Shown here: in pieces, positions 18,676 to 64,000 of the stretch
Layout of the letters: the number at the start of each line of letters is the position of its first letter
Numbering within the stretch: the stretch's first letter is position 1
Assembly (NCBI RefSeq): GCF_963676685.1
Contig: NC_092351.1
Span: 59,768,001 to 59,832,000, forward strand
DNA length: 64,000 nucleotides
Direction: 5' to 3'
From: Mytilus edulis
Taxonomy: Eukaryota
Program-made: the position numbers and the translations under genes
Notes under the pieces: generated by a model
Database searches by the model: none
Told to the model about the DNA's origin: nothing
Seen by the model: the letters and a program-made list of their open reading frames with translations, nothing else

Positions 18676-19462
18676 ATGAAGTATTATTTGATTGGAGTTA
18701 CAACCCTTTTGGGCCTCGTGTGCGGGGACGCCGAAGATATAGGAACGGTGATCGGTGTCGACCTCGGAACTACTTATTCTTGGTGAGTAAAAATCATTTT
18801 AATAGTATAAAGGGATGACATTATATGTTTTCGTCATTCACTGAAACATTTGTGAAAGTATGTTCTTTGGTTCATAAAAAGTAATATATAATGTCTTATA
18901 TTTTTTTTAATTGTCCTGTACCAAGTCAGAAAAATGGCCATTGTTACTTCTATTATTATAGTTCGTTTCTGTGTGTGTTACATTTTAGTGTTGTGTTTCT
19001 GTTGTGTCATAGTTCTCCTCTTATATTTGATGTGTTTCCCTCAGTGTTTGTAACCCGAATTTGTTTTTGTTTTACTCAATCGATTTATGAATTTCGAACT
19101 CGAACAGCTGTATACTACTGTTGCCTTTATCTATATAAATAAAAACATACTAGTATTAACTAAAACCAACAACTTTAATTTTCATTTCATCTTTTGAATG
19201 TTATTTTCTTCACTTTTTTTTATTTACATTTTCACAAAGACTTACTAATGTCTTTATCACTTTTTAGTGTCGGAGTGTATAAAAACGGAAGAGTTGAAAT
19301 CATTGCAAATGAGCAAGGGAACAGAATTACCCCTTCTTATGTAGCGTTTACAGAAGACGGAGAACGTCTAATAGGTGACGCCGCCAAAAACCAACTGACG
19401 TCTAATCCGGAAAATACGATATTTGACGTAAAACGTCTGATTGTCGGGAATGGGATGCACAA
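18676..19462 (+). pseudogene. HSPA5: BiP/GRP78 (ER HSP70) 5' part, coding exons 18676-18782 and 19268-~19462; frameshifted and interrupted by an insertion
   Basis: Signal peptide followed by [64 protein letters not shown] 1-bp deletion at ~19443 hides IGREWDAQ, and homology stops abruptly at 19462. Confidence 0.9.
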
Positions 19463-19884
19463 GGATAATAGTTACGCTGAACGGTGCCCACTGGTCACCC
19501 TATAAATAGTACTCTTCTGTGTAGTAATATTGTAGTTCTAAAAATAGAAAACTAAAAATAGACAATTCTTCTTTCTATTTAGCAATACACCATAGATCTA
19601 GAACCTGTCACCGTCTGTATTATCTGTAAGTAAAATTAACATACCGAGCAATTGAATACAACGAGTAACACAAACTTAAGTTTAATTAAGTCATTCAAAG
19701 CAAAATATTCGTTTCATCTATTTTGTATGATTTGTCATTTGTGGTGACACGTTCTTTTAAATGTTCGAATCACAGACTAGAAGGAAATCTTCTTTTTTGA
19801 ATTTTGAATATTGAATTTGATTACATGTGGCCATCTTAAACAGAAATGGGATTTGTTAACCTCTGTTGGACTTTATATGCTAGA

Positions 19885-29800: not shown

Positions 29801-31629
29801 ATCTTTTGATATTTAAACAATTACAATATTGGAAAAAGAGAAAAAGATCCCACTAATGTCTCATTTCTACAGGGATTTTTCTTATAATATTAACATATCA
29901 ATAACCAATCGTGTTTCATTGTGAGGCAACAAATTCGTGATTTATTTTTAAAAACAATGTTTCACATCCTCTGCATATAAGACTGTTGTAAAAAAAATAT
30001 CAGATTCAGGTCCAGTTATACTATGTAAATTAACATTCACCTAGTACATATTTAATATTCGAATACATTATTTGAATTTGTCAGGACCAACTCAAAATTA
30101 TTGACCAATTTAAAAATTATTCTATTTCACTGTGGTATCATAGGTTCATTATATTTTATTTGTCTTAACTAGCACGTTTGATTACCCTGGTATATATTTT
30201 CATAGTTCTGATATAGTCAATAACTTTTTTTTTGGTTTGTGCGTGCATGGGTCCTGATACACCAGATTCTTTTTTATTCAAAAATATGTACACAGCCTGT
30301 AAACCAAATCATTTATATTTAGTTCATGTCTTAAAGATTTCTTGCTAATAATAATTTAATATTGTCTTGAATATATCATGACTAATTATTTTTCAACAAG
30401 ATAATATTTGATCTATGAGTATTAATGCGAAAGAGTTGATTTATTAAATCAAAACTGACCCCAGGCTTATAAACAAAAACAAGATATAAAATGTTAAATC
30501 CAATGCAATTAATACCTATTGATTCAATAGAGTGAAATTTCACAGAATAACTCTCATTTAATAACTGATTTTTTTCCCATAAAGGTAAAATGTATGATAC
30601 ATATATTGAATGATATAATACCTGTAAAACATGAAACCAGCAAAGTAAAACGGAGCTGTTTGGGAATACTTCATTAATTGCGCTGATTTCTTTGGTACCA
30701 TAAAAGATCTAGTAAACAAAATGTAACACTGCAGTATCAACAATTTGTATCTTTATCTCATATTGGTTTTATTCTATAATACTATTTGTTAATTTGTAAA
30801 TAATTATGTAAATTCTTATTTTTTTATATCAATTAGATTCTCAATTTTTGATTGAAAAGTTTGGAAACAAGCCCAACAAAGCTTTAATTATTATGTTATA
30901 TGTAAACCTGACTATGAATTAATCTTACATGCTTTGGTTTTATGGCCTTCCATAGATCACTCTCAAAAGTTTTTAAGGAAATTGATGTTTTTGTAAGTTT
31001 CATTAGTCCATGAGATAAATATTATTATGCAAAATTATTTATCTAATATTCTTTGCCAAAATTCAACTTAAATTGTTGTTGACCTTAATTGTATTAATTT
31101 TGATATGCAGGAAAAAATGTTTCTTTAGATGAATCTTTCATTGCATTGTCTATTGGTCAATTGTCAAATAACTATCACTGCAAGAATATGTGAATAATGT
31201 CATAGTTTAACCTGTAATTTTTACAGACAAATTAATTAAAAGATATAATTGAATGGCTTTTATTTATCTTTTATATCCATATCAGATTTGATGTTGACTC
31301 CGAATATTGTAACTAATTGTAAACAAATAATAAGACGAAAATGAAAAGTGTTAATAAGCAATGTTATTATACTTCAAGAGTTTTTTTCCTATATAAAATA
31401 CATGAAATAGTTGTGCTATTTCCTTCTAAAGACAATTTGCCAGTTAATAGTTTCAAAGACTATTTACCCGGTGAATAGTTTTGTAAGTAGATTTCCCGAA
31501 CTTTTCTAACTTTCTTTTCATTGGTCAAAAATGACGTCATTTATCATTCGCGATTCTCTGAGTTTTTCCCATAGTCATGTAAAACACTGAAATATCGAAA
31601 ACAGGAAGACGACATCAGACGATCAAAAC

Positions 31630-33551
31630 ATGGCAGAAACAAGCAGATTTGCATCTTTAGAACCTGATGATCTTAGTAAAATATTGAATGACAGAGATTC
31701 GAAAAATACTAAAAACGTAATAGGAGTATCAAAAAGGATAATAGGAGATTATTTGCTAGAAAAAGACGGTTTATATAAAACTATACAAGACTTAGACCAG
31801 GCCAACACAGAAGACGTCGTCAAAACACTCCGACAATTTTATGTTGAGGTCAGAAAAACAGATGGTACATTATATGCTAAAAAATCTTTGATTACATTAA
31901 GATTTGGCTTACAAAAACATTTCGCTGAAACAAGAAAACAAGACATAATCAACAATGAAGAGTATAAAGCTGCAAATGATATGTTCAAAGCTATGATGGT
32001 GGCGATGAAAAAAGAAGGGAAGGCCAATGTCAATCACAAAGAGCCTATTTGTCCTGAAGACTTACAGAAATTATATAAACATGAACAATTTTCCCTTAAG
32101 ACTCCCGAGGCATTACAGAAGAGAGTGTTTTTTGAGTATTTGTATTACTTCTGTAATAGAGGCAGAGAGAATATAAGAGATGTACAAAGGGACGATTTCG
32201 AGTTAAAAAGAGATGCAAAAGGGCTGCGGTATGTCAGAGTTAAAGTTGTACGGCAAACCAAAAATCATAGAGGGGATGACTTTACAGATGTTGATGATAA
32301 AGACGGCAGGATGTATGAAATTCCAGGTAAATTATTTGTTGTTATAAATGTAATAGATAAATAGATTAAATACATGATGCTGAAACCATGTTTAAGAAGT
32401 TTACGTTGAATACATTCTATAATGAGTTTTGCACATATGAAGTTCACATACGCGTCGCCAGTAAAACTGCATTTGCGACCGTTAAATTGGCAATTGACAG
32501 TGACACAACTACAGTACTGTTATTCCTTAATTTTACCATTGTTCACTTGACTCACTGATGAGACACATTATTTACAAGCACATGTACATGTATCTTTTTC
32601 AATGAGTTACACCAGTTGACCAGAGGTCAATCAACTTAACTAACATCCTCAAACATTGGTTTTTACTATGATTAATAATGTAACGTACATCAGCATTGTG
32701 AGATAGGAAATTATGGGAAATTGTAAGTTGTTTATTTCTTAAAACTGTAATTAAAAAAAATCAAAACTCTCTCAAAAATTGCAGGAACAATGTATAAAAA
32801 ATCTTATAAACACACCAAAAAAAGAATTTTTCTGGTAAACTTCAATTATGTATTAAAAGTGTCTATCCTTTTTTTTTCAGGAAGTGCTAATTGCCCTGTT
32901 ATATCTTTCACCAAATATTTTAGTAAGCTGCATCCAGACAGGACAGAGTTTTGGCAGCGTCCAAAGCGTGCATCCAAAACTACAGAATCCGCCGATATAT
33001 GGTATGACAATAGTCCAGTAGGAAAAAATACTCTTGGAAATCTAATGGCTAAAATAAGCGAAGAGTGTGATTTGTCTCGTAGGTACACAAATCATTGCAT
33101 ACGCAGTACATGCATAACTGTCTTGGACGAAGGGGGTATTGAAACTCGACACATTATGGGACTTAGCGGCCACAAGTCGGAATCAGCAGTAAAGTCCTAC
33201 TGCAAGCGTCTGAGCAGTACTAAAAAACATGAAATGTCAAACATTCTAAGTGAAACTATTCAAAGTGCAACAAGTTTAAATGGTGAATTATCAGAAAAGA
33301 GAGTTAAAACTCAGGATACAACAACATCAATATGTGATAATAGCGTTGACTTACTTTCTAATGATATTGAATTTGATCAAATACTACAGGACATTTCAAG
33401 CTATGAGTCAAATCAGACAAACATTCAAAATATTATTCCTCCTTCATGTAGTTCAACAGTAGGTGTCAATAATAACTTCCGTTTCCCATTGTCTGGGTTT
33501 TCAATTCAAAACATTAACAATTCCAATATACATTTTCATTTTGAGAAGTGA
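31630..33551 (+). CDS. Crypton tyrosine recombinase (DUF3504/KCTD1-like), 2 exons 31630-32326 and 32881-33551, 455 aa
   Basis: NRGRE (R), QTKNH (K), CPV, TNHCIRST (HxxR), SGHKS (H) and VKSY (Y); phase-1 GT-AG intron; no stops. Confidence 0.9.
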
Positions 33552-33995: not shown

Positions 33996-36086
33996 ATACT
34001 ATTGAATTCGAAATATTGTCAACTTTGATACCCACAAACCTTGGACAGAAATCAAATCCCTGATTTTCAGCCGTAGTCTTCAGATATCTCAGAAATATTT
34101 TGACAACTTCACCAGTATCATCTGACAAGATACAGTACGAAAGAGGAGTGCCCCGGCCTTGCTGTTCATCTCTTGCAACAAGAGCATAGAATGAATAACC
34201 ATAGGCAGTTAATCCTTAAACAAACAAAAAAATATGCTGTAAGTTTATTGTCACACAGTTCATTTTTTTTTACACGTGTTAATATTGTAAATTGAAATTT
34301 CCATGATTATATATAAGTATAATTATACCTTTATATGTAGCATCTAAAAACACCACATTTTCTGCTAGTTTCATCATTCTCTTTCTTTGTGCTTCATTCT
34401 GGTAAATGATTTCTAATGGATGTACTCCCCTACAATGTAAATGTTACATATTTAATGTCCAGAAGTATGAGTATATATTTTATGTTGAAATCATGTGCAT
34501 TTAATGAAAGAGAAGACGACAAACTAGCTACATTGTACTCATATTAAATAACCTCAATGAAAACTGAAAAGACAAAAATGTAAAATCTATTGACAAAATA
34601 TATGACTTGTGAACAAGTGTAGCACTAAAAACACTCAAAAGGATAAAAACCAAAAATACAAAGCATCTATTATAAGAAGTCAGATATACTACAGAAAACT
34701 CCTCTGTACAGCTCTCATTGAAACATTTTACGGACAAAATCATATACGAAATTGGACAGACGAGTACTATAAAAAAAATTCATTTGAACATAAGGCAATC
34801 CAGTCATGTCTGAAGAACAAAACTGGGTATCAATCAGTAATTTCAGAATTACTCTTTATCAGCATTATGCTTATATCAGTCATTAAAATTTACAAAAGTA
34901 CATTATTATATAAGAATAATTACTCTTTCAATTCTTGGTAGAAAATTATCTTTTCCTTCAGTATGTGTGTGCATAACTCGTGTACAGCTACAGCATCATT
35001 CTGGTGAATTCTAAAACAAATGAGGAAATATAAAATTTAACCAACTTTTGTAGAAATATCATAGATCAATACAAGTACTGACATGTACAGAACCAATGTC
35101 AACAGTACATCTGTATAATTTGACCAGAAAACACCAAAGTTCATTTACTGTGTAAAGTGCATAATTACAATCAGATTGGTAAAAAGATTAAATGGTGAAT
35201 AAAGGTCTAAATATCTATATAAAGTAATGATTTAAACAGACGACCATTGGGTTTGCATACAGTGCATCAGTTTAAATGACCGCAAACCAAAGTCTGTATC
35301 TATGAATGTCATAGAGGTAACCAACGTCAATTCCAGTGTAAGGTACTAAATACCAAATGCTCTTTACATTTAACTTTACCAAAGTATGTAGATGTAACAA
35401 GATGGAACCAAGGATATACTTTGTGTGAAGCTATCAATATTTTTAAATTGTCCAGATGTGACCAAAGTTGCGGTGAACAGTGGTAACCAAAGTCAATATA
35501 TGTGTACGGTTTCAAAAGGAGTATAGATTATACACATATCTAAAATAGACATAGGAAACACAAGTATGTTTAAGGTAGCCCTAGTCAATATCTGTGTATC
35601 ATTATATATATGTTTAAGGTGACCAGAGTAAACAAATTGGTGAAAAGTGATTATCAAATTCTGCAAACATTTAAGGGTACAAGTGGCGACCCAGGTCCAT
35701 ATCTGTGTTAATTAACCAGAGGTTACCAAAATCTTTATATTTTAAGTGTTATCAGAGGTAGCAAAGTCTTTGTCTGTGTACTTCAATATAAAGATTTGGT
35801 TCAAGTAATCAGAGGTAACTTAAGTCCGGGCAATGGTTATTTTTTGATGACTGGATACGTAGAGACAAAGCCTGTTTCTTTGGATTTTTGACAAGAACAA
35901 AGTAGTAAGTACATATTTTAAGTAAATCTTTTGATTATGTTTTGATACCTTTTATCCATTTTGTAACGTTGACATATATTCTTAATGTCAACTGGTGTCA
36001 GATAGTATCTGCTATCGTGCACATCAAAATGCCTTTGAACTCTAGCCCATTTCCATGCTTTGCACAATATTTCCATTGGTTTTTTC

Positions 36087-36186
36087 NNNNNNNNNNNNNN
36101 NNNNNNNNNNNNNNNNNNNNNNNNNNNNNNNNNNNNNNNNNNNNNNNNNNNNNNNNNNNNNNNNNNNNNNNNNNNNNNNNNNNNNN
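36087..36186. other. Assembly gap (100 N, true size unknown)
   Basis: Run of exactly 100 N. Confidence 1.
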
Positions 36187-36295
36187 CCATGATTTGAAAG
36201 AACAGAAGAAAGCTTTAGAAGACATTGTTAATCCAATTATAAGTAATATATATCAAGATTCTCCTTCTTCGGAGGGAGAAAAAGAAGAATTGTAA
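36187..36295 (+). CDS. HSPA5: BiP/GRP78 C-terminal fragment ending in KEEL
   Basis: HDLKEQKKALEDIVNPIISNIYQ...GEKEEL* matches the BiP lid end and an ER-retention signal. Confidence 0.85.
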
Positions 36296-42228: not shown

Positions 42229-45200
42229 TTACAGGGAATCCTCATATTGCCTGGCGTTATTTAGATGATAATGACAACGAAAGTTAAGGAATAAAGCATA
42301 CTGTATAGTATGAATACTACACATGTCATTCATTACTTCCTTAAGAAGTTCGTTAGGTATTAATACAGAGTTCTGTTCGAATAACATAACATCTACTAAC
42401 ATTATTCTCCACTGTTGGACAATGCTTTTCTTCTGGATTGTTTTCAGTTTAAGTAATCGGTGATCTATATCCATCACATCCATGGAACGGAACAGTTTTC
42501 CGGGAGGATATTTAGTTATAGAATACTCGATGATGCGTAACGCTTTATTGTATTGCTTTGTCTTGTAGAAAAACGAAGCTAACATCAGCCATCCAGATAC
42601 AGCATCGTGATAGATATTCTGTTGTAAAATACTAATACATGATCTATACTGTGTGTATTGGTATTTATTACTGCACGTAATGGTCAGTGGTAACGTCTGG
42701 GCACGTATTGAACACACCACTGACATAAAATATGTGTATAAGTATTTTATTGAAGATTTCTGACATGAAACAATCAGTTGTATTCCTCTTTGGAATTCGT
42801 TCTTAATAATATGAGTGACCAAAATATTTAAAGACTGCAATTGGAGCGAATTAATTATTGTTACAACTTCAGGCACATACAACGAATGTGGTTCGATGTG
42901 GAAATTCTGCATTGATTTATGAAACTTAGATATTTGATCGGAAAATAAAATGCATCGCCAACCATAACTATGCAGGGTAAATAATTTCTCTAATAGTATT
43001 TCACGAGCACGACCCTCTATCTTGTTCTCAAACATGTTGTTTTCTGGAATGAAATAATGCAGGCAAACTGCATAGTCAACACAATAAATCAGTCGCCTCA
43101 AACATTGCATAAAACAAGGTATAAGACTGAAAGGTTTCCATGCATGTTGCGGTAGTTCTTCAGATATCCAGAAAATAATTATTTTCAGAAAATATGAACA
43201 GAGTAAATCTTTACATTCAGAGTTAGCAGCAATAACATCTTTCAAGAGAATTTTTAAGAGGGCATAGCATAATAATTGAGTGTGTGTAAACGTATTTATG
43301 AGAAGTTTTCCACCAACTGAAAAGGATATTCGCCATTCAAGATGTTCTTTTGGTGACCCTTTTACTCCGATCGGTACAAAGAGTACCCCATGTTCTATAA
43401 TACGTTGTTTTACATTATAACTTGGCCACTGATTGCTTGGTCTGGTTATCCATTCTGTTGCAGGTGCTACCCAGGTTTTACAACGAAGGCATAAGGCTAT
43501 ATCCATCTTTTCATAGTTGTCAGATATACACGGTCCATGAATAGTAAGTTTTTTCTTATCAACCAAAAGGCCTTGTCTAAATATAGCGCTCGAAAAATAA
43601 TATTTACCATTTACTTCTTCAAGAGTTCTATGGGACATACCACATGTATTTTCGCAATACAATTTAGTAAATCCAGGCTTTACATCATCTGTATCCATTG
43701 TCCAATATCTAATTCTTGGATGTGAACTGGATTTCACATCTTGAATCTTCATATCTTTGAGCACACACATAATATCTAAATCGCTGCCTCGCATCTCAAG
43801 TCCTTCCCCGAAACTACCACTTGTAATAAATGTCATCTTTTCATCACTAGACAAGTTATCGCGGACGGTGTTAATCAATCTGAGTTGTTTAACATGATCT
43901 TCTGTTCCAACTATATTCTGACACATAAAACGATACAGCGCTATTGATATGTTTTGTGCTACGTTGTCTGTAATAAGAACAAAAATCTTGATTGTTAGAA
44001 AAATAAATAATCTTAAAATTAAGTTGAAGGTAGCATTTCTGTAAATATTGACAATGGAATTTTAAAAATAACTCCTTATACAACAAAACCTGTACCACTT
44101 TTACTATGAAGTTTCGAAAAAATCTTAAAATGAAAAGCTCATATGCACTACTATGTGCTTCAAACGTTAAAATATAGGGCTGTGCAGCATATTTTCAACT
44201 ATTAGATGCCTTCGAACTTATAAAAGAGTTTAAACTTTCTGTACTACCCCTACCTTCATTTAGGGGCTTCCTCAGAATTCAAGGCTGACTCTATAATGTT
44301 TTACTTATACTGGTAGCATTCCCAAGTTATGTCTCTATGAGATGAAACGTAGAGATCATATCTGGGAACCAGTACCTAAACGGAACAATTAATCTATGAA
44401 TATTATACATTCCCCAAAAGACGCGTTCTTGATGAAAAAGCTGTATATACAAAGCGAAATTGAAATAAAACAAATGATGATTTGAAAGATAGATTGAACG
44501 TAAACATATAAAATGTACAGGCTTCTCTTAAAAGGTAAATCGAGTACATTTGATATATGACATGTAAAAACATGTATTTGAATAAAAGTAATCTGGAATA
44601 AAACTGTTATCCGCGTCATGATGCACAAATTCTTATCTAATTAGTTAAGTGTATGCTCCCTTTTGCTTTTTCATAGGGTTGTAAAACAGTTCACCGAAGC
44701 ACTTCATATTAGAAATCAGCGCAATTGGATTTAAGAATTTCAAAAAGCAGCATTGAATTCATATACTAAATTTATTCATTCATTGTGTATTAATTTACGT
44801 TTTTTGATTGAGTTAAGTCTGCCAATTGATATTTTATCGTGTGTTTTTCTATGTTGTGATGTTATGCTTTTGTTTCAGAAAAAGGGAGAAGGTTTGGATC
44901 CATTAAAATGTTTAATCCCGCTGCAAATGTTTGCACCTGTCCTAAGTCAGGAATCTGATGTACAGTAGTTGTCGTTTGTTTATGTAATTTATATACGTGT
45001 TTCTCGTTTCTCGTTTTTTATATAGATTAGACCGTTGGTTTTCCCGTTTGAATGGTTTTACACTAGTAATTTTGGGGCCCTTTATAGCTTGTTGTTCGGT
45101 GTGAGCCAAGGCTCCGTGTTGAAGGCCGTACATTGACTTACAATGGTTTCCCTTTTTATTAAATTGTTATTTGGATGAAGAGTTGTCTCATTGGCACTCA

Positions 45201-50780: not shown

Positions 50781-51515
50781 TTAGAACATTTAGTGAGAGG
50801 AAATTTGCTTCAAATAAAAAATAAACTCAACATTTGCCTCAATCAGTAAAACCAGCAGTTCTAAACGTACATTGGGGATATATTTAGTTCTATTATTAGA
50901 AATACGCTGTGATATTTCAAGAAACTGACAGTATCCAAATGCTCCTGTGAAACCTTGAAAACCCTTTACACACATACATATGTATATTCTCCGTAAGTGC
51001 AGTTAATCCAGGGCTGATACTAACATTCCGTATTCTAACATTCATCCATTTACCTGAAGGTGGCATGGTAGTTTTTCTGGCCCATAAGGGATAATGATAG
51101 ACTTTTTTTTTTAGAATTTTCACCACTTTCTAACACTGCCAAAAATTCTTCATTCACATTTAACTGAAGTTCTTTCATTTTACTACTAGTATTCGGAAAT
51201 GAATTTAAATATGTATCATAACCGTTTACTTTTTTGCTATCTTTAAAAACCTAGTGCTTTAAGGTCTTTTATCGTGCAGTGAATACAAAATTTCAATCAA
51301 TGTGAGTCTTACATTTTTTATTGTTAAAATTATTTCACAGGTATGTACATTTTTGATTTTGTAATCAGAGTATGGGAGTGTTTGACAACCGGTTTGTTTA
51401 CAACATGTATATATATTTAAAGATATCAGTCCAGTTAAGACTGACGTCATGTTTTCAACAGGGAAGTTAAATCCGTCGCTAGGCTAGGAAAACAGTGAAC
51501 ATTTCTAGACGTGAA

Positions 51516-52298
51516 ATGTCGTTATCAAAAAGTTTACAAAATACGGTACAAGTTGAAAAATCTTGTGAGGTATGCGAAGTTAGTATATAAATACAGTGGA
51601 AGTGTTTTGATTGTAAGCGATATATGTGCAGTGCCTGCAAAGAAACGATCCACCCAAAATTTAAACATGCTGACAAGCACAAAATCGTAAAAACAAAAGA
51701 TATAACCGAGGATGATTTGGAGGAAAAGCCTGATTTAACGTCCATTAGCTGCACAATTCATGACGATAAGTTATGCTGTCTTTATTGTAAGGAATGTTGC
51801 GAAGCAATTTGTTCCTTGTGTGTTACACAAACACATAGCAAGCATGAAATGATTGAATTGAGTGAGGGCTATGATATTTGCATTAAAAGACTTCAAATGT
51901 TCACCATGCAGATTGACGAGAGAATAAGATTCATTAAGTTATCAGAGACTGGTAGATATTTAGACGGAAAAAAGAAAATGGAGATGCAAGAAAGAGTACT
52001 TATCAAGGCCATCAAAAGTCATTCAGAGATACTAAACAGGGAATATGACAGGCAATGGGATAATTTCAATGACACCATCAGTAAAGAGGAAGCTGTAGAA
52101 ACAGAAACTAAACGTATTATATTCAATTCAGCTGTCAGAGCAGCTGACGGAAACGAAACATTCAGCGTTGCCAGAAAAGGAAACATATTATTGGCTGAGG
52201 AAATGACAAGAATCAACCTTGACATTGAACGTCCACAAAGTTTCGTTCCCAGATCGATTTCGACAACGTCCATCGAATTAGTTCATGGGTGGCTAAAG
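51516..52298 (+). CDS. Tandem B-box + coiled-coil (RING-less TRIM-like) exon with an in-frame TAA at 51588-51590
   Basis: MSLSKSLQ..CEVCE..*IQWKCFDCKRYMCSAC..H..H (B-box 1) and CTIH..CCLYCKECCEAICSLCVTQTHSKH (B-box 2), then a helical region; ends at an AAG|GTAAGT donor in phase 0. Confidence 0.85.
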
Positions 52299-52419
52299 GT
52301 AAGTTATATCAAACGTTATAACTGCAGAAAATCAATATGAAATAGAAAAAAATAATTGGTCATGGATACGTTTGTAAGTACAGCTTGACATGATACAGTT
52401 TAACAAATTGTGCACCTCT

Positions 52420-53250
52420 TCTTGCCGACTTGTTTCTTATTATTATGAGACTGACTTCATACAGAAACTTCTTAGGAAGAAAGATCAGACTTTAGCAATA
52501 TCCTTTAACTCTACTTTCCGCTATATAGATGATGTACTTTCACTAAATAATTCAAAATTTGGTGACTATATTGAACGCATCTATCCCATCGAACTAGAGA
52601 TAAAGGATACTACAGATAAAGTTAAGTCAGCCTCATATCTTGACTTACATTTAAAAATTGACAATGAGGGTCGGTTGACAACAAAACTTTACGACAAAAG
52701 AGATAATTTCAGCTTTCCAATTGTGAACTTTCCATTTCTAAGTAGCAACATTCCAGTAGTACCTGCGTACGGGGTCTATATCTCCCAATTGATATTCCCG
52801 TGCTTGCATTTTCTATCATGATTTTTTTATAGAGGGTTGCTGCTCACAAGGAAGCTATTAAACCAAGAGTTCCAAATGGTGAAGTTGAAATCATCCCGTC
52901 GTAAATTTTACGGACGTCATCACGAGTTGGTTAACCGTTATGGAATAACCGTTTCTCAAATGATATCGGATATGCTCCTTACGTCGTAACTACAATCCCC
53001 TTCCCTTTCATGAATGTCACATACCGAATTAGACTATTAACCGGATTTCTTATCACATAAGCAACACGACGGGTGCCACATGTGGAGCAGGATCTGCTTA
53101 CCCTTCCAGAGCACCTGCGATCACCCCTAGTTTTTGGTTGGAGGTACGTGTTGCTTATTCCTTAGTTTTATATGTTATTTAATGTGTACTATTGTTTGTC
53201 TGTTTGTCTGTTTCATTTTTAGCCATGGCGTTGTCAGTTTATTTTCTTTA
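52420..53250 (+). mobile_element. 5'-truncated Penelope-like retroelement (RT C-terminal part + 3' tail)
   Basis: FRYIDDVL, SYLDL, LYDKRD and AYGVYISQLI, with a frameshift afterwards. Tail remnants also occur at ~3135, ~25155 and ~28145. Confidence 0.8.
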
Positions 53251-54940
53251 TCTCTATATTACATCCCTCTTTTTAAACACTTCATCTTCTAAATCTGCGC
53301 ACAATTTTATTATGAGAAAAATGGTTTTATATGTGAAGTTTTATCAGTACTATGTATGATTGTAAGTATTTAACATCCTTAGACAGACTGTTTCACAGTA
53401 GGTATATATAGTTTTTCGAGTATATATGACTTCGTTTTTCCGAGTAAAGATGATTAAACATGTAAACAAACAGAGATCATTTTTGTAAGACTTGAAATAG
53501 ATGCATAAACCTTATATGCAAGACCATATAAGGTCAGTTACTATTGATGATAAAAATACATCACCTTTAAAATCTATATATCCTTAGATATACAGTCACT
53601 TTATAAAGATTCTTGTTATTGCATTGAGGAGGACATTTGTTGGAATAAATTCATTTTTATTTTTTATATGTCCGTGTTTTTTCGAGAGCAGTCAGTGTGT
53701 TTTTGTGCCGACAAGGTTTTGATCGAGAGATCAAATAAAAATTTCAATGGCTTAAGATGTAATATGTCAGTGAACTTTGTCTAGGGATCGGTAAATATAA
53801 GAATATAAACGTAGTTTAAGACTTGAACTTTCTATAAAAGTTTTGTGGTATATTACGATGTTGTAATTTGTATTTTGATTTGTCACTATATTATATATTT
53901 GCAACAACTGATATAGACATACATATCATATGTATGAGTGTATAATAATTTTTTGGTTTCAGTTTATCATAATAGATATAGGAAGATGTGGTGTGAGTGC
54001 CAATGAGAAAACTCTCCATCCAAATAACAATTTAAAAATTAAACCATTATAGGTTAAAGTACGGCCTTCAACACGGAGCCTTGGCTCACACCGAACAACA
54101 AGCTATAAAGGGCCCCAAAATTACTAGTGTAAAACCATTCAAACGGGAAAACCAACGGTCTAATCTATATAAACAAAACGAGAAACGAGAAACACGTATA
54201 TATTACATAAACAAACGACAACTACTGTACATCAGGCATCATAAACATGTTTAGTTTGTTTAAATGACAATACAGATTATTATTATATAAAATCTATTGT
54301 GAACTTTTTACTAGGACTAAAGTGTACTTGGAGAAAGGAGTAGGGGCGTTTAGACCCGGCTATGGTCCAATAAATTTAAGTTATTGGGATTTATTATATA
54401 TGGCACATAATGTTTGGAAAATATAAATGATTGACATGAAAATTGTTCGTGTAATTGCGTCATAATAACATCATAAAATGCACTGTTGTTATGAAAACAA
54501 AAAAAACTAGTTAAATGCAGTTTTCCATTAATATTTCCTTGAGGAAAAATTGTGCGCAGACAGGAAACAACAAAAAAATTGAAGTGAAGCTTTATTTCAA
54601 CCATTGACATATTCTTACTAAATTTAAAATTGTTTCTTGTATGTGCACATACTTTTCCAATCTTATATATACTTCAAAGTTGACGTAAAACAAGAAAAAT
54701 CGAGATATCTTACAAAAATATACACATTTTGTCATAGTTTTTTGCAATGGTAATTTGTTTAAAAATAAATTCGTTTTTATTTTCTGAACAACCTGACTTT
54801 AGTGTAATTTTGACAAGGTAAAGATAATGTATTGTATGTTTTAAATTTGTACTATACTTGGGCCAAGTGAGGGTCGTATTGCCCCTAATCCTTTAAACCT
54901 CGAATATAAAACACTCAGTAAAACGTAAACCGTATTAAAC

Positions 54941-55032
54941 AGGAGTTGATTTCACAAAAATACTTAAGACTAAGATTGATCGTAAGTCATGAACAATTCA
55001 GAATACTTACGACCAATCTTAGTGGTAAGTTT
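54941..55032. mobile_element. ~90-bp palindromic MITE
   Basis: GGAGTTGATTTCACAAAAA...TTTTTGTGAAATCGACTCC. Confidence 0.7.
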
Positions 55033-56439
55033 TTTTTTGTGAAATCGACTCCAGATGTCTGTCCCCAGGACAATAGATTAAAAACAAATTTGCCGTGAAG
55101 CGACAAGCTCGAGAGTAAAACTTAAAAAAACCAAAACTATATAACGATTTATAGAACTTAAATAAAACAGCCGATACGCCTGAAATTGACAAAATGTACT
55201 ACTTTAGCATGTTTTGTAACTTTATAGTTTCAAACTTGAACCATGCATTAATTGTCTTTGTAATTCCTTTTTTACTAAAAAAAAGCTTGATCAATCTGAA
55301 GGATTCTTCAGGATTCATACGAAAGAGGGTTTTTTAAACACTGAGATTAAAAATGATAAACTATCATAGATATTGGATTTCGGTAACAAAAGAATATTGA
55401 TTTGTTGCAGTTGTTGGTTCAGTGTGCGTTATTGATTTCCCATAGACTGTAATGGTAACATTTTCCTCTTTAGCATAGTTTATATCGTAAACTTGGATAT
55501 GAATAATGGCTCGTGTAGAAGCCGATATATGTAAACATATGTAGGTGTCGTCTGTTTATGTAATTCGTACGTGTTTTTGTTTCTCGTTTCTATATAGATT
55601 AGACCGTTGGTTTTCCAGTTTGAATGGTTTTACACTAGTAATTTTTGGGTCCCTTTATAGTTTGCTGTTCGTTGTGAGCCAAGGCTCCGTGTTGAAGGCC
55701 GTACCTTGACCTATAATGGTTTACTTTTATAAATTGTTATTTGGATGGAGAGTTTTCTCATTGGCACTCATACCACATCTTTCTATATCTATATGCGGTT
55801 GAATTTGCGGGTTACGAATTGTGATTTTTCCCGTAAAGAAGCTTACCCCAAAAATCCTTTCGTGATACGGCTCCTCGTGGTGAACAGTCCCATTTTTAAC
55901 ACAATCAGTTAATTGCAAATTTAATAAATTGAATATATTTTTTCTATGGTCCTCTCTTTTTTTTTCTAATCAACACAATATGTTAAACTCAATCACTTAA
56001 AAATAGAAACATATCTTATATTACTACAGAGAGATCTTTTGTTTACGCACCACTTTGGTTCCTCAATTTGAAACGCATTAGGGATATTGACCCAGTTACG
56101 GCTTCTGAGCTGTTTGGGACAATCTGAACGAGTTTAATTGTTGTTTTTTTAAGTGATATAATTTGGATTTAAATCTAATTTGGATATCATGATTGGTTTG
56201 ATATCTGTTGACAACAACTCAAGCTTAATTAAATGCAACAAATTTTGCAAAACTGATACAATTGCAAATTGCCAGTACAGCCCCCTGTATATTGTATTAT
56301 GGATTGCATCTATAAATAACTATGTTCACAATTACCTAAATAATACTCATGATTCACTAATCAATTACAAAATGTTATGCTTATATGAATCGACTGTTAT
56401 CATTTGATATAAATGGTCTGTTATTTCGTAATTTTTCAG

Positions 56440-59400
56440 ATGATTCACAAAAAACCTGTAGTTGTGGCTATCGAAATCGGAACAAATAAAATCGGGGCTG
56501 CTTATTGTGACAGAAGCGATTATGACCGATATATGAGTAACGGTGCAAGTAGTCTTAACTTAATGGTAGTGGCATTGGAAGGTCTACAGCCTGTTAGACT
56601 GGACTCGTGTGTCTTATTGGAACCAAATGGATCAGTCCATTCTATTGGATACCAAGCGTTATGCTACTATAACGAAAATGCCGAAAATTTAACTAACTGG
56701 TACCTTTTTGAAAACTTGGGAAAATCGCTTCACGGAGAAAAAGTTAGTACTTTTTAGTATATATATATTAAGTACTTTGTGTCTTTTTGTCTTTTTTATA
56801 AGATTTGATATTTTGATGCTAGTCGGTCTGATTAGTCAAACCCTTCCGAGCAGGTTTTACAATATGTTTTTTTTTTATTTTGTTACAACACTGTTTCAGG
56901 TCCATTGAGCTAATGTTATCTTTAAACGAACCATTTTTATCCTCTGAATCCCCTTGGTGAATTTGATATCTCACAATAATATATTAGGACACAAAAACGG
57001 GATATAAAAAGTCTCTGTTAACACATCACACTTTAAGGTGACTCGGGTGTCTTCCTCCATCTTTGATTTTGAAGAAGCAGATAACTTTGGTCTAGATATT
57101 TGATGAAATGTCCAAATGTTGAGAGTTGTATGTAATTTATGTAAAAGACTTTTGATAAGAATATAGAAAATTGTGTGTTTTATCATAATTACAGCTGTAA
57201 TTTCTCAAAAATACTTTGTGTTTGATCAGATTTTTTTTCAACTTTGCCAAATAAGGGGAGATAAATCAGATAAAGTAATTTTTATAATAGAAAGTGTTAT
57301 GAGTTTACCTATTTTGATATGTAGCAAGAAAACAAGTTCAGTGACCCCATTTTTTCTTTTTTTATCTGAAAGCATGTTATAAAAGCAATCTTCTCACATT
57401 TTATGTGAAAGTTCTGATAGTACGTTTTCTTTTTATCACACAAAATTTGATTTTCTATGCATGTTCCTAACATGAAGATCTCTACAAATCCAAGAAAGTA
57501 TTTGCAGTGTTTGCACTACAGCCGCCAATAGGACTTACTCTCTTGGTATATTTTTAAGTGACGTGTCTTTTGTCTAATTTTATGACATTGTCCAATTCAT
57601 GAATCATCAATACAAGTTATTATGTAACCCAAAAACGAATAATAATATAATTTGATTTACATTTTGAAACTAGACAAGGGATCAACAATATCTTTTTATA
57701 ATAGGATATCACAAAACTCAACACATAAAATTTTAACAAATATGGGATACTGATCAGTACGTTTGAGTCAGCATTCTTTTAACAAATCGTTATTGATGTA
57801 AAAATGACCATTTGTAGTAGGTTAATGACATGGGTATGTTTAATTATATTGTATAATATTTCAGCACAATGCTAAGAATGCTAAAGGAACTGAAATTTGG
57901 TACATTCTATGGGTTTTCTTCCATTGTACATGTTGTATTCCCTTAAAAATAAGCTAAAACAGACATTTTAGAGGTTTCAAACCAAGGTTTTAAAATTCCA
58001 TCACTTCTTATAGAATGAGTTATGGCAAACATTTGCAAAAGTTGTGAGGTGAAATTACTAATAATAATATATTTATCAATTAAGTTTTTGTGGTTATGTA
58101 AGTCAAAGTAAAAAATAGAACAGTCGTGTCGGCGCACTTTTCAACTTAGCATCTACTAATGAAGTTGATACACACTCATGCAATGGCAGAATTGTTGTTG
58201 TGGCATCATTTATTACCAAATGTTAACAATAGAGACCTAGTTTTTATTCCATTGGAACATATAGAGTGACAAAGCAACGAAACAATCAGACACCATCCCA
58301 ATTTCAAACATAGACATCATTGAAGGAGTTCAAACGAGTCGAACTAATAGGTATACAGTGGAGATCAGTTCTAACCTCTCATTAAATATGTCAGAATCTG
58401 TCAGGAGAACTGTTCTAGGACAGTACGTAGAACTGTCAGCCTGACACCTTTTAGTCAGTTCTAGGTTAGAACTGTTCAAGCTAGAACTGATTTGGTCAGT
58501 TCTAGCTAGAACTGATTTGGACAGTTCTACCTAGAACTGATCCTGACAGTTCTACCCTAGAACAGTTTTAGACAGTTCTACCTAGAACTGACCAAATCTT
58601 TTTTGGCACAACGTTTTGTAATTGTGGGTCCTCAATGCTCTTCAACTTTGTATTTATTTGGCTTTTTAACTATTTTGATCTGAGCGTCACTGATGAGTCT
58701 TATGTAGACGAAACGCGCGTCTGGCGTATAAAATTAAAATCCTGGTACTTTTGATAACTATTTACACCACTGGGTCGATGCCACTGCTGGTGGACGTTTC
58801 GTCCCCGAGGGTATCACCAGCCCAGTAGTCAGCACTTTGGTGTTGACATGAATATCAATTATATGGTCATTTTTATAAATTTTCTGTTCACAAAACCTTG
58901 AATTTTTCGAAAAACTAAGGATTTTCTTACCCCAGGAGTAGATAACCTTAGCCGTATTTGGCACAACTTTTTGTAATTTTGGGTCCTCAATGCTCTTCAA
59001 CTTTGTATTTATTTGGCTTTTTAACTATTTTGATCTGAGCGTCACTGATGAGTCTTATGTAGACGAAACGCGCGTCTGGCGTATAAAATTAAAATCCTGG
59101 TACTTTTGATAACTACTTCTACTAGAACAGTTCTACGGCTAGAATTGATTTATAATTTCTACGGCTAGAATTGATTTATAAATTCTACGGCTAGAATTGA
59201 TTTATAAATCCTACGGCTAAAATTGATTTATAAATTCTACAGCTAGAATTGATTTATAAGTTTTAAGAACTCTTTTACTAAATATAAAGGCTTCGACAAA
59301 ATAGCGATTAATATTATAAGGAGTTTTGCTATTTTGCCGGTTTTGATATGTGACTGTTCCAAGTCAGGAGTCTGTTATTCAGTGATTTTCTTTTGTTGAT

Positions 59401-62400
59401 GTGTTACATAAATTATTTGTTTTTCTTTCATTTTTTGAACATAAATTAGGCCGTTAATATGGGGGGGGGGGGGGGGGGTGGGGGGTGGCATTATTATTTC
59501 AATTGTTTTACATTTGTCATTCCGGGAGTCAGGATGGCTCGTTTTACATAACAAAATTATCTGACCTTAATGTAATACGTTGTTCCGGCGGATCCAGCAG
59601 TTTTAAAAGGGGGGTCCCAACCCAGTCCCAACCCAGGAAAAGGCGGTGGGGGGGTCCAACTATATGTCCTCATTCAAATGCATTGATCGTCCAAAAAAGG
59701 GGTTCCAACCCTCCCCCCTCCCTCCCCTCTGGATTTGCACTAAAATTATAGTACTAGCATGTCCTCTTTAAATTTAAAATATTGAATCTTAAACAAATGT
59801 GATATCTGTTTACGAGTAGTTTTCATACCTCGGATGGACCTGTTATACAAAAATCTTTTGACCGCATCAATCTAAACTGACCTTATTTGTTCTTTCTTCC
59901 TGCAAATCTATATAGCTGCAAAGTAATTCAGTTATAATTTTAGGTCAAGAGGGACTGTAATATACAAGTTACAGCAATATTGGAAAATAATGACCTCAAA
60001 ATTTTGTTCGCATGAATTTAAAGTGCCAGCATGTCCTCTTTTTATTCAAAGTATTGAATCGTAAACAAATATCAGTAGTTTTCATACTTCAGACTGAGTC
60101 GTGTTATAAAATCTTTTGAAGGCATCAATCTAAACTGACCTTATTTGCTCTTTCTTTCTGCAAATCTATATAGCTGCACAGTAATTCAGTTATAATTTTA
60201 GGTCAAAAGGGACTGTAATATACAAGTTACAGCAATATTGGAAAACAATGACCTCAAAATTTTGTTCGCATGAATTTAAAGTGTCAGCATGTCCTCTTTT
60301 TATTCAAAGTATTTAAACATAAACAAATATCAGTAGTTTCATACTTCAGACTGAGTCGTGTAATAAAATCTTTTGACCGTCATCAATCTAAACTGACCTT
60401 ATTTGCTCTTTTTTTCTGCAAATCTATATAGCTGCACAGTAATTCAGTTATAATTTTAGGTCAAAAGGGACTGTAATATACAAGTTACAGCAATATTGGA
60501 AAACAATGACCTCAAAATTTTGTTCGCATGAATTTATAATGCCAGCATATCCTCTTTTTATTCAAAGTATTGAATCGTAAACAAATATCAGTAGTTTTCA
60601 TACTTCAGACTGAGTCGTGTAATAAAATATTTTGACCGCATCAACCAAAACTGACCATATTTGCTCTTTTTTATGTTACTCTTATAGTTGCATAGTAAAT
60701 CTGTAATATTGTTATGTAAGGATGGATTGTATAATACAAATGATAGAAATATTGAAATACCTAATTTCTTTTGCATCAATTTAGAGTGTCAGCGTGTCCT
60801 CTTTTTAATCAAAATATTGCATCATAAACAAATATCAGTAGTTTTCATACCGAAGACAGACTGGTAAAACAAAATTATGTGTCTGCAGCAACCAAAACTG
60901 ACCATATTTACACTTTATTATGTAAATCTTAATATATAGATAATTTTATAGCTGCATAGTAAATCACTTATAAAATTGAGAAAGGAAATGGCGAAAGGTG
61001 TCAAAGCGACAACAAACCGACCATAGAGCAGACAACAACCAATCACGATGGATTGTATAATTCAAATGACAGCATGTCCTCTTTATATTCAAAATATTGA
61101 ATTGCTAACAAATTTCAGTAGTTTCGATATATCAGGCTGAGTTGTTTTAATAACAACATTATTTGACCGCATCAACCAAAACTGAACATATATACTTTAT
61201 CATGTAAATATATACATGTATGGCCTCATTGTAAACCAATAATATTTCTATGTCAGGACAGATATTGCATGATAAAGACGATACCAAATTTCGACATCGA
61301 TTTAGCGCGCCATTATTTCCTCTCTGTATCGATAATATTATTATTTAAGGAATGACTGTAATATTTTTCTGTCTATGAAGAAATAACATAAACAATTTGG
61401 TGCACACTGAATAACGTGAGTAGCGGGTTTTTTAACAGTGTGCATGCACCACATTTTTTTATGTTATTTCGAATAGACAGAAAAAAATCTTACAGTCATT
61501 TCTTATAATTTAATTCTAACTTCCATTTTAAACCTTGGCAAACCATGAAAAAACTTTGATGACGATACGGTCACATGACTAACTTTTTTCTATGGGCTGA
61601 TAACAAAATAACGTCAGCCAATCAGAAGACCCGTTACATCCAAAATTAAATTATTAAATAATGATCGTCACAAAAGTGACTTTTTAAGTCAGTATAGTCC
61701 ATGACGTTTGTTTTTTTTAAACAAAACTATTTAACGGCATCATCCAACACTCACATGACTGATTCATATACTTTATTTTAAAATGAAAAGTACATGGATG
61801 AGAACTTCTCTTCTTGGAATAATTTGAAGGAGGAAAATGATTGGTTTCGTTTGTAGCCTAACGGCCAGTGGCAAATGTTTCATTCATGTTCAGATCGAGT
61901 TTATTTTTCTGACGTTCCAGACTCCCAGATTATCTACGAGATAATGCAAATGTAGCTTACATAGTTTTTTTTACGTTTAACAACACTTTTTTCATTAATA
62001 TTCCATAATTCATCCACTGTATAGTTTTCGTTTGAACATTTGTCAAAACAGAATCTTAAATCATGAATGTAAATCCAAGGCAAACAAGGTAAATTAAGAT
62101 TAAAATTCCATGAATTAAATGCAGAGTTATTTAGGAAGAGACTGTTAAAAACGGGGAACGAAGAAACGTAAACAATGATGTTCATATGCAATCTTATAAA
62201 AATATTTCTCCGATGAGTTGGATAACCTTCTATCCACTTTGATATTTATACATGTAACTGTTGAACAGTAAATAATATAGAAAAATAATATTATATATAG
62301 GAAAGTAATTGGGACGGATTTTTTCTTCTAAATTCTAAAGTGCCCTTTCTGCAGTGACGTCATTTAGAACTGTTCTACAGTCCTGACTGATTTAGTCAGT

Positions 62401-63030
62401 TCTGCTTACAGTTCTACGGTTAGAACTGATTTGGACAGCTCTACCTAGAACAGTTTTAGACAGTTCTACCCTAGAACTGATCCTGACAGTTCTACCCAGA
62501 ACTGATGTAGTCAGTTCTACCTAGAACTGATCCTGACAGTTCTACCTAGAACAGTTCTAGGGTAGAAATGTTCTAGCTAGAACTGTTCTAGGACAGGTTA
62601 GAACAGTTCTATGACAGATTATTCTGACAGTTCTAATGAGAGGTTAGAAGTGATCTCCACTGTACTTCATTGTACTTTGAGGAAATATACACTTTTTACT
62701 CAATTCGATTAAATCTGATTTAATTTAGCAAAGCTTATTTGAACAACTTATATTGAAAATGTCTCTGATAAAAAAAAAAATATATAAATATTGCAGATAG
62801 AATTTACAAATGACACTTTGCTAGCAGAATCAAGGAGTTATACGGGATGTAAATTAAAGACAATGAAAGCTTTGGATGTTTTTGCAGCTCTTATTAGTTA
62901 CATCAAAGGAAAGGTTCCAATACAGTTACGGAGAACCGAAGAAATAAACATCAATATTGAGGACATTTATTGGGTGATTACCATACCAAAAATGACAGCA
63001 GAACAGTTCATTCGTGATGCTGTAACGAAG
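56440..63030 (+). CDS. HSPA12-type HSP70 nucleotide-binding-domain exons (56440-56742, 62797-63030); the gene continues beyond the window
   Basis: PVVVAIEIGT (divergent phosphate-1), SCVLL..HSIGYQA, WYLFE, MKALDVF and IYWVITIP..AEQFIRDA; AG/GT boundaries in phase 0. Confidence 0.8.
58600..59115 (+). ncRNA. Non-LTR retrozyme: ~1.45 tandem units with two type I hammerhead ribozymes (58685-58726 and 59040-59081)
   Basis: CGTCA-CTGATGA-GTCT(tatgt)AGAC-GAAA-C(gcgc)G-TC^TGGCG; predicted cleavage after 58721 and 59076, giving a 355-nt monomer. Confidence 0.9.
59131..59260 (+). repeat. 26-bp tandem repeat (TTCTACGGCTAGAATTGATTTATAAA) x5
   Basis: Seen directly in the sequence. Confidence 0.9.
59757..61260 (+). 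repeat. ~260-bp tandem satellite, ~6 copies of varying divergence
   Basis: GCATGTCCTCTTT-like anchor at ~59757, 60029, 60287, 60546, 60792 and 61072. Confidence 0.85.
61341..61655. mobile_element. Non-autonomous hairpin element (possibly Crypton-derived)
   Basis: Long internal inverted repeat at 61341-61510 (AATGACTGTAA..TTACAGTCATT) followed by a unique tail. Confidence 0.5.
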
Positions 63031-63700
63031 GTAAGGATCTTCAACTAACTCATAAAGTATAATATCTAGCAACTTTTGCGTTCGATTCCAATTTTAACTG
63101 ACTCGGAGTGTCAGTTTTCCTACCAAGGGGGTGCTTATTTCCAGACACGTCCTTGTTCTCATCCAATAAAAACTAACTGCAACAAAATAACCAATAGCGA
63201 TGAAGTTGGCGATATACACCAAGCAATCAATAAATCAATATCAATAAATATATCATGTGTTGTGTGCGTTGTTGTTATTTAATTTGAAAAGTCACGATTT
63301 ACACGAATGGAATTAAACCTTTTACTTGATGTTGTTCACTCAGGTACACCGTTTAGAACACCAAGCATTGTCAGGTTTCTATTGTCCCTCTGTTGTCCCT
63401 CTATTGTCACTCTAATGTCCATATGTATCAATATATTTCACTTCAATTATTACCTGTGGGGAAGTTTTCAATTCTCTTTCACAACTATGTTTATTTTGGC
63501 CTCTTCTCGATAAATAAAAAACAGTGCTCTGCAAAATCCAGTTAAGTTTGTTTTTTTAAAGAGTCAATGTATTTGAATTTTCTTTATATAGAGCATGCTA
63601 TGACTTCAACATTTGCCAGATACTCCGGTTTGTCTGTACTCATAGTAAATTTAAGGTGAAAATGCAGTCATTTCAGTCAGAGGATCCACACGAACCTTAA

Positions 63701-64000
63701 AGGAGCACTAGCTATGAGATATATAAAAAATCTAAAATAAGATTTTTTTGTTCAATCATTAATGAAAGCGAAATAGTGAAATACTAATTCGCTTTAAGCA
63801 ACAATTATGGCTCAATTTTGACAAAATAAACTAAGAAACATTAAAGATTAATTATTCACTTGCAAGTAAAAAATTAGACCTCATAAAATCCGTATTCATG
63901 TGAACTTCAATTTGACCGCTTAGCTAGAGATGGATAACGTATAAATCGTGCGTGATTAGTCTATTGAAGGTACAGAATGTCAACATTTAAAGTGAAAAAA
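63701..64000 (+). mobile_element. Left end of a TTAA-targeting DNA transposon (Kolobok-like)
   Basis: TTAA|AGGAGCACTAGCT terminus; runs off the window. Confidence 0.35.

Follow-up and report, generated by a model that had tools for sequence, protein, structure and literature searches.

A spliced mussel gene joining a B-box/coiled-coil scaffold to a degenerate, tail-less HSPA12-type domain

Do a B-box/coiled-coil exon and an HSPA12-type exon that follow one another in the genome of the mussel Mytilus edulis belong to one gene, and, if so, what kind of protein would result? The locus that raises this question lies on contig NC_092351.1 (C8 in the coordinates below) of the 1.37-Gb RefSeq assembly GCF_963676685.1 and was analysed in a stretch of 64,000 nucleotides (positions 59,768,001 to 59,832,000 of the forward strand; hereafter the window, to which plain position numbers refer; Table 1). 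A first-pass annotation made from the letters alone had described a TRIM-like exon that ends at a phase-0 donor with neither a stop nor an NHL or SPRY end, followed by an HSPA12-type ATPase domain in phase 0 from 56440 that continues at 62797, and had read the two as a fusion. The description is borne out. Exon 1 matches Pfam zf-B_box (E 3.4e-9) in two stretches followed by a long helical region, runs without a stop into a phase-0 GT(AAGT) donor, and gave no RING, NHL or SPRY match in the Pfam scan. The HSPA12-type domain continues from exon 2 into exon 3 and is finished by exons 4 and 5, 7 and 20 kb past the window end. All four introns are GT..AG, exons 2 and 3 have canonical phase-0 AG/GT ends, and the joined frame of five exons comprises 689 codons plus stop, a TAA at codon 25 being its sole break.

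That the B-box/coiled-coil exon and the HSPA12-type domain form one spliced gene is practically certain. The joint from 52298 to 56440, which skips 4141 bases bounded by GT and AG, is present in contigs of runs X2, X3 and X8, which come from three studies, the shorter flank measuring 236-255 letters, and in contigs of X1 and X4 exon-2 letters follow directly after 52298. The junction is thus spliced in five of five RNA-type contig runs from four studies with three organism labels (the RNA label of contig runs X1-X14 is a guess; no run is recorded as RNA), and a single X2 contig of 4985 bases holds exon 1 from 51502 together with exon 2. Splicing of the B-box exon to another partner, the outcome that would have spoken against a fusion, did not occur in the transcript contigs. 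The raw RNA-seq run X24, of which 19% was read, has no cover at the junction and hence gives no evidence either way. Fused gene models of full length are available for M. trossulus (698 aa), M. californianus (704 aa) and M. coruscus (724 aa), where the fusion has already been predicted automatically (XP_063416297.1, XP_052078460.1, CAC5424712.1) under the names 'uncharacterized', 'HSPA12A-like' or 'B box-type'.

In the M. edulis annotation the gene is represented by the model XP_071126739.1 (397 aa), which includes the junctions after exon 2, corresponds to residues 293-689 and starts within exon 2, most likely because of the codon-25 stop. Taken at face value, this model and the stop in exon 1 would favour a pair of independent genes, one a B-box pseudogene and the other an HSPA12-like gene standing alone. 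This alternative can be virtually dismissed, since it is refuted for intact alleles by the five spliced contig runs and by the fused models in three species, and since a protein beginning at residue 293 would lack the first strands of the fold. The first-pass annotation had also cautioned that the ATG at 56440 might start a gene of its own. However, this methionine is simply the residue behind a phase-0 acceptor, and the unfused HSPA12 paralogue L037 has an acceptor at identical offset and phase, followed by Ile in place of the window's Met. The ATG is therefore not a start, and the B-box exon has taken over an existing acceptor; the spliced junction and the L037 acceptor together rule out a separate HSPA12 gene starting there. 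The Hsp70 half of this gene escapes detection by Pfam and PDB sequence searches at E<0.1, and Pfam is equally blind to it in the three other Mytilus models, so that a search by domain architecture would miss them. Automatic annotation thus hides the fusion, behind a split model in this genome and a Pfam-invisible Hsp70 half in three other species. In a literature search that covered subscription journals and supplements thinly, no paper describing a B-box plus HSPA12 was found for this transcript-supported TRIM-type architecture. B-boxes go unmentioned in the accessible parts of two bivalve HSP70 surveys; one of them, which assigns 89 of 113 HSP70 genes of Magallana gigas to HSPA12, mentions neither B-box nor TRIM in its text or in three supplements (PMC11268181).

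The alignments show the HSPA12 module standing where intronless, RING-less B-box genes carry their beta-propeller, the replacement falling at the domain boundary. Exon 1 has 149 further scored matches in the genome (26-44% identity), mostly single open frames of about 570 codons, and weak NHL matches are present in five of ten scanned database relatives of about 560 aa. It aligns to the first ~270 residues of these relatives and ends just past the conserved linker that precedes the propeller. Intronless Mytilus B-box/coiled-coil/NHL-like proteins without RING ('TRIM71-like', XP_071136653.1, VDH95271.1) share with the fusion the starting residue, M1 being common to at least 90% of 41 B-box family rows, as well as the zinc ligands, and are about 25-35% identical to its N-terminal 261 residues; they differ in carrying a propeller where the fusion has an Hsp70-fold domain. 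On the other side of the junction, unfused HSPA12 paralogues have their acceptor just ahead of the phosphate-1 strand, and the captured gene retains the four-exon layout of these paralogues, with the same intron positions, and is therefore not a retrocopy. On this sequence evidence, an intronless, RING-less B-box/coiled-coil/propeller gene gained a splice donor exactly where the propeller would start, and this donor was spliced onto the phase-0 HSPA12 acceptor, the Hsp70 domain taking the place of the usual ligand-binding propeller. The origin by exon shuffling suggested in the first reading thus gains support from a junction at the coiled-coil/propeller boundary and from the same-offset acceptor in L037. 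No propeller remnant was found in intron 1, and no remnant of the HSPA12 tail in the ~58 kb downstream.

In the scaffold half, the B-box zinc ligands are kept, with 11 invariant Cys/His columns in 41 rows, and in the AlphaFold2 model of sequence P0003 (built from 49 sequences) the helix at residues 112-212 represents the coiled coil. Residues 70-267 of P0003 are predicted to form an antiparallel TRIM-type dimer, with a score of 0.63 against 0.01 for the best control, contacts agreeing at 94% or more, predicted local distance difference test (pLDDT) values of at least 83 and residue 140 lying near residue 195 of the other copy. Among microbial pairs, 21 of 30 reached the score mark used, as did 17 of 29 pairs from eukaryotes (seven of 16 in animals) and none of the 23 and 30 respective single chains; the pass may also reflect likeness to solved TRIM coiled coils. 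The product is not a full TRIM protein, as no RING was found by the Pfam scan in the three full-length Mytilus relatives either; without a RING, E3 ubiquitin ligase activity would need a partner.

The captured domain, by its model and matches, keeps the Hsp70/actin-like nucleotide-binding fold and HSPA12 descent. The P0003 model has a pLDDT of 75.7 overall and mostly 80-98 within the domain, and its top Foldseek matches are nucleotide-binding domains of DnaK, BiP and Hsp70 (E ~3e-14, template modelling score by target ~0.67-0.70); phmmer finds proteins named HSPA12A/B-like (E ~1e-37), and the nearest relatives in the tree are of the M. trossulus XP_063419328.1 and P. maximus XP_033742695.1 types. 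The bivalve HSPA12 family shares exon-intron layout and fold with the module, but the fusion differs in its degraded motifs, its TRIM-type N-terminus and the absence of the ~148-residue HSPA12 tail, all four Mytilus proteins stopping right after the domain. Of 19 residues taken from the Hsp70 motifs and mapped on sequence P0015, 12 are retained in the window protein and 10, 9 and 10 in its three Mytilus relatives, compared with 18 as the median of 56 unfused domains (seven of 63 rows had been dropped for incomplete motif coverage). Changed in all four Mytilus proteins are the phosphate-1 Asp (to Glu or Lys), a second phosphate-1 residue (Thr to Asn), the K71-equivalent lysine, the connect-1 Glu (to Asp), the phosphate-2 Gly (to Asp) and the adenosine-loop Gly (to Asp or Asn). 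The functional roles of these residues, including that of the catalytic lysine, we take to be those of Hsc70. The divergence noted at first sight is confirmed, both for AIEIGTNKI in place of AIDFGTTYS in exon 2 and for a loop in exon 3 that is shortened relative to canonical HSPA12 sequences, and the reading of a degenerate ATPase site holds. ATPase activity is very probably lost, and by motifs and tail the fusion would not count as a working HSPA12. A nucleotide-gated TRIM scaffold, in which the domain would still bind nucleotide and switch conformation, could draw on the first glycine of each loop, the connect-1 Glu and Ala and the phosphate-2 aspartates, all largely kept, and on the response of human HSPA12A to ATP/ADP (PMC6345817, in the part available). 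It is nevertheless very improbable, given Asp or Asn for glycine in the phosphate-2 and adenosine loops and the missing catalytic lysine in all four Mytilus proteins.

The premature TAA (codon 25) represents a real, polymorphic nonsense allele. DNA-type contigs of X15 and X16, which may be the source sample of the assembly, equal the window over 51452-52420 with no differences, including the T of the stop, on which ground an assembly or consensus error, one of the two explanations initially considered, is rejected. The other, polymorphism, is confirmed by the C of CAA at this site in the near-identical contigs of X1, X2, X3 and X4 and in the one X24 read that covers it (the X8 contig lacks cover there). 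Restart at codon 37 would cost four cysteines of B-box 1, and no full-length protein would be expected from the allele in this assembly. Runs X15, X16, X1, X4 and probably X8 contain another version of the gene, with about 90% identity in exon 1 (window 51452-52069), and nine of its nine listed amino-acid changes match the M. trossulus protein. Neither this version nor any close paralogue of the fusion gene was found in the assembly, and this version represents either a paralogue that the assembly lacks or an allele of deep divergence, the depths of the two versions (97:66 and 8.7:2) being compatible with both.

A real stop allele could indicate that the gene is a drifting by-product of two very large and unstable families, with long branches as a further sign of early decay. 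The branch to the Mytilus clade amounts to 1.16 changes per column, and the genome, with at least 150 matches to the B-box exon and 95 to HSPA12, would provide many chances for fusion. Against such drift, the models of three other species keep a full-length frame while their Hsp70 domains are only 43-57% identical pairwise, the zinc ligands are intact, the same motif substitutions recur in four of four Mytilus proteins, and the two copies differ by 12 synonymous and nine non-synonymous codons among 25 listed differences (a partial list). We therefore hold it unlikely.

The combination also recurs outside Mytilus. In a survey of the best 150 of 1444 matches, a sample biased to query-like proteins, B-box plus HSPA12 was found in gene models of the oyster Saccostrea (737 aa) and the freshwater mussel Potamilus (two, 796 and 1596 aa, both with RING), and a protein of 708 aa from the clam Ruditapes has an HSPA12 domain and one B-box-like Cys/His cluster, recognised by eye and not by a hidden Markov model; all of these, being gene models, have candidate junctions. 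The five fused lineages (Ruditapes counted) all end within 10 residues of the domain, whereas eight of 59 unfused proteins end within 20 (Fisher p 2e-4). The tree needs five label changes, at least three to four of them forced by strong branches. In approximately unbiased (AU) tests on quick trees (28 of 71 rows, subsets picked after the first tree), a single origin of all eight fused domains was rejected (p-AU 0.002), as were a clade of Mytilus with the two Potamilus proteins (0.016) and one of the four non-Mytilus proteins (0.006); clades of Mytilus with Ruditapes (0.28) or Saccostrea (0.39) were not. Unfused B-box proteins match the Mytilus N-terminus at 132-157 bits and other fused N-termini at no more than 49 bits, which favours a separate Mytilus origin. 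Repeated origins of a B-box joined to a tail-less HSPA12 domain are thus probable on sequence grounds, at least two and plausibly four or five in number. The motifs have decayed strongly in Mytilus and Ruditapes and mildly elsewhere. HSP70 and zf-B_box are both represented in three ESM Atlas clusters with 67-107 members each (scores 0.88), which serve as leads only.

Two further candidate fusions of tail-less HSPA12 domains were noticed among 13 short-frame HSPA12 loci examined in this genome. On C6 at ~43.27 Mb, ROC and COR exons (L049:8372-8689, L050:1821-2489, L051:44-1327; Pfam COR-A E 1e-12) stop at a distance of 0.8 kb from a downstream, same-strand HSPA12 domain with intact motifs (L051:2117 onward), a candidate ROCO-HSPA12 fusion. 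On C6 at ~54.39 Mb, exons at L075:50-430, 1705-2121 and 3321-3632, which encode a CARD (Pfam E 4e-8) and, by eye, a TRADD-N-like stretch and a second CARD-like exon, lie a few kb upstream of an HSPA12 domain (6360 onward); this candidate CARD-HSPA12 fusion resembles published oyster TRADD-N plus HSP70 proteins.

What, then, might a B-box dimer with such a domain do? Tentatively, and with a little less than even confidence, we propose by analogy a dimer whose exposed, catalytically dead Hsp70 domains would serve innate immunity as a bait or a sensor. The domain would no longer cycle ATP or fold clients and would present an Hsp70-like surface. Proteins binding or attacking domains of the Hsp70 family, with pathogen factors as the most plausible candidates, would be trapped on it, after which the B-boxes would bring dimers together and enlist a RING ligase encoded separately or a partner in autophagy, on the model of TRIMCyp. 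In TRIMCyp, cyclophilin replaces SPRY, with several independent origins (owl monkey, macaque, tree shrew and Peromyscus; PMC6677749, as far as available). TRIMCyp and the mussel fusion are alike in a TRIM scaffold whose C-terminal binding domain was swapped for a host chaperone-type domain, in repeated origins and in some copies being inactive. They differ in that TRIMCyp joins the RBCC part of TRIM5 to a cyclophilin A retrocopy, whereas the fusion has no RING and uses a four-exon HSPA12 gene with introns; moreover, its captured module is a degenerate ATPase domain, and pathogen binding would be by analogy. A second parallel is offered by TRADD-N immune proteins of oyster (Crassostrea virginica) and sponge (Amphimedon), in which HSP70 likewise forms the variable C-terminal part of a scaffold with a proposed role in immunity, although this scaffold is DED/TRADD-N and not B-box; at none of the 13 'HSP70' places listed in supplement 4 of that study, available in part, is HSP70 paired with a B-box (PMC8195603).

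Several observations weigh against an immune bait. The immune role itself rests on analogy, and the Saccostrea and both Potamilus fusions keep 15-17 of 19 motif residues, so that deadness is not general. Client binding of human HSPA12A is modulated by ATP/ADP (PMC6345817), and atypical motifs alone are thus no proof of inactivity. Tail loss also occurs without a B-box: of the genome's 94 other matches to the last HSPA12 exon, 14 have short frames. At 13 of these loci (C11:22.68 Mb was left out of the 14, and two of the 13 regions stop short of the first HSPA12 exon), no B-box frame was found within 38.5 kb upstream of the last exon, nor was one found upstream at two control HSPA12 loci. Neither DNA run (X15, X16) holds a CAA version of this copy, which, together with the nonsense allele, suggests that the gene may be dispensable. 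Expression looks low, with contig depths of 5-31 and X24 almost uncovered, although contig depth is a poor measure. Finally, among the four Mytilus proteins the B-boxes are 71-86% and the Hsp70 domains 43-74% identical, compared with 94.5% for a canonical HSPA12 pair of M. trossulus and M. galloprovincialis; the contrast counts in favour of a bait, but the fast change of the Hsp70 domain may reflect relaxed constraint.

The same divergence bears on a host-directed regulator, whose dead Hsp70 domains would bind endogenous co-chaperones or HSPA12 partners for turnover or act as a dominant-negative brake. Such a function would fit a fold that is kept while catalytic motifs and tail are lost, the description of human HSPA12A as an adaptor (in the accessible part of PMC6345817) and the BiP-like genes that flank the locus, perhaps by chance; a host-binding surface, however, should be conserved, which 43-74% identity within the genus does not suggest, and this alternative is rather unlikely. 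A broader and more doubtful proposal is that bivalves have repeatedly, and each time separately, swapped the sensor domain of TRIM-type (perhaps also ROCO and CARD) scaffolds for tail-less HSPA12. The very large bivalve HSPA12 expansion, commonly ascribed to heat-stress adaptation, would in that case supply in part integrated decoys against Hsp70-targeting pathogens, as an invertebrate counterpart of TRIMCyp, and Mytilus may keep two versions with bait domains only ~74% identical, plus a null allele. Since some copies resemble modules without enzymatic activity on scaffolds of immune type, there is an alternative to the thermal-stress reading of the HSPA12 expansion that can be put to the test, and the null allele, occurring naturally in a farmed species, lends itself to relating genotype to phenotype.

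Table 1. Features of the B-box/HSPA12-type fusion gene (window positions unless a contig is given).
Feature	Position	Strand	Evidence
Exon 1: B-box 1, B-box 2, coiled coil, linker; 261 codons	51516..52298	+	Pfam, open reading frame, alignment
Premature stop TAA, codon 25	51588..51590	+	T in DNA contigs X15, X16; CAA in transcripts of other mussels
Next ATG, codon 37	51624..51626	+	Sequence; ligand positions
Intron 1 (fusion intron), 4141 bases, GT..AG, phase 0	52299..56439	+	Spliced contigs
Exon 2: start of HSPA12-type nucleotide-binding domain; degenerate phosphate-1, K71-equivalent lysine lost	56440..56742	+	
Exon 3 of HSPA12-type domain; shortened VPAIW-type loop	62797..63030	+	Part of XP_071126739.1
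Start of intron 3, continuing past the window end	63031..64000	+	
Exon 4: connect-1 and first half of phosphate-2 motif	C8:59839005-59839146 (L002:9005-9146), outside window		
Exon 5: remainder of domain, stop immediately after, no HSPA12 tail	C8:59852438-59853045 (L004:2438-3045), outside window		

Repeats are present in introns 1 and 2. Intron 1 has a high repeat depth and contains a reverse-transcriptase-like fragment at ~52378-53250 (open reading frame 52378-52821), recognised by eye and without a Pfam match, besides further dispersed repeats; intron 2 holds, as judged by eye, tandem arrays together with a pair of related arrays of short units that face opposite ways, at 58400-59250, 59760-61200 and 62360-62650. 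Divergent from the fusion gene and 7.5 kb upstream lies an intronless Mab-21/cGAS-like receptor frame with a TPR-like end (42229-44061, minus strand; Pfam Mab-21_C E 3e-14), and ~8 kb beyond exon 5, on the opposite strand, an intronless B-box/coiled-coil/NHL gene of 576 codons (L005:788-2515, minus strand). BiP/GRP78-like HSP70 pieces are present in the window as a first exon with broken frame (19179-19505, plus strand) and, behind an assembly gap, a last exon ending in KEEL (35909-36295, plus strand); an apparently intact BiP-like gene ending in KSEL lies downstream (L005:5084-8466, minus strand). Between the two pieces there is a Crypton-like tyrosine recombinase in two open reading frames (31591-33551, plus strand; Pfam QRICH1, DUF3504 and phage integrase). 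An exon at 9731-10039 (minus strand) presumably resembles the C-terminus of alpha-N-acetylgalactosaminidase, and a long element resembling a long interspersed nuclear element, with an open ORF1 of 692 codons and an ORF2 frame of more than 1056 codons, occupies L007:6832-9999 and L008:717-2792 (minus strand).

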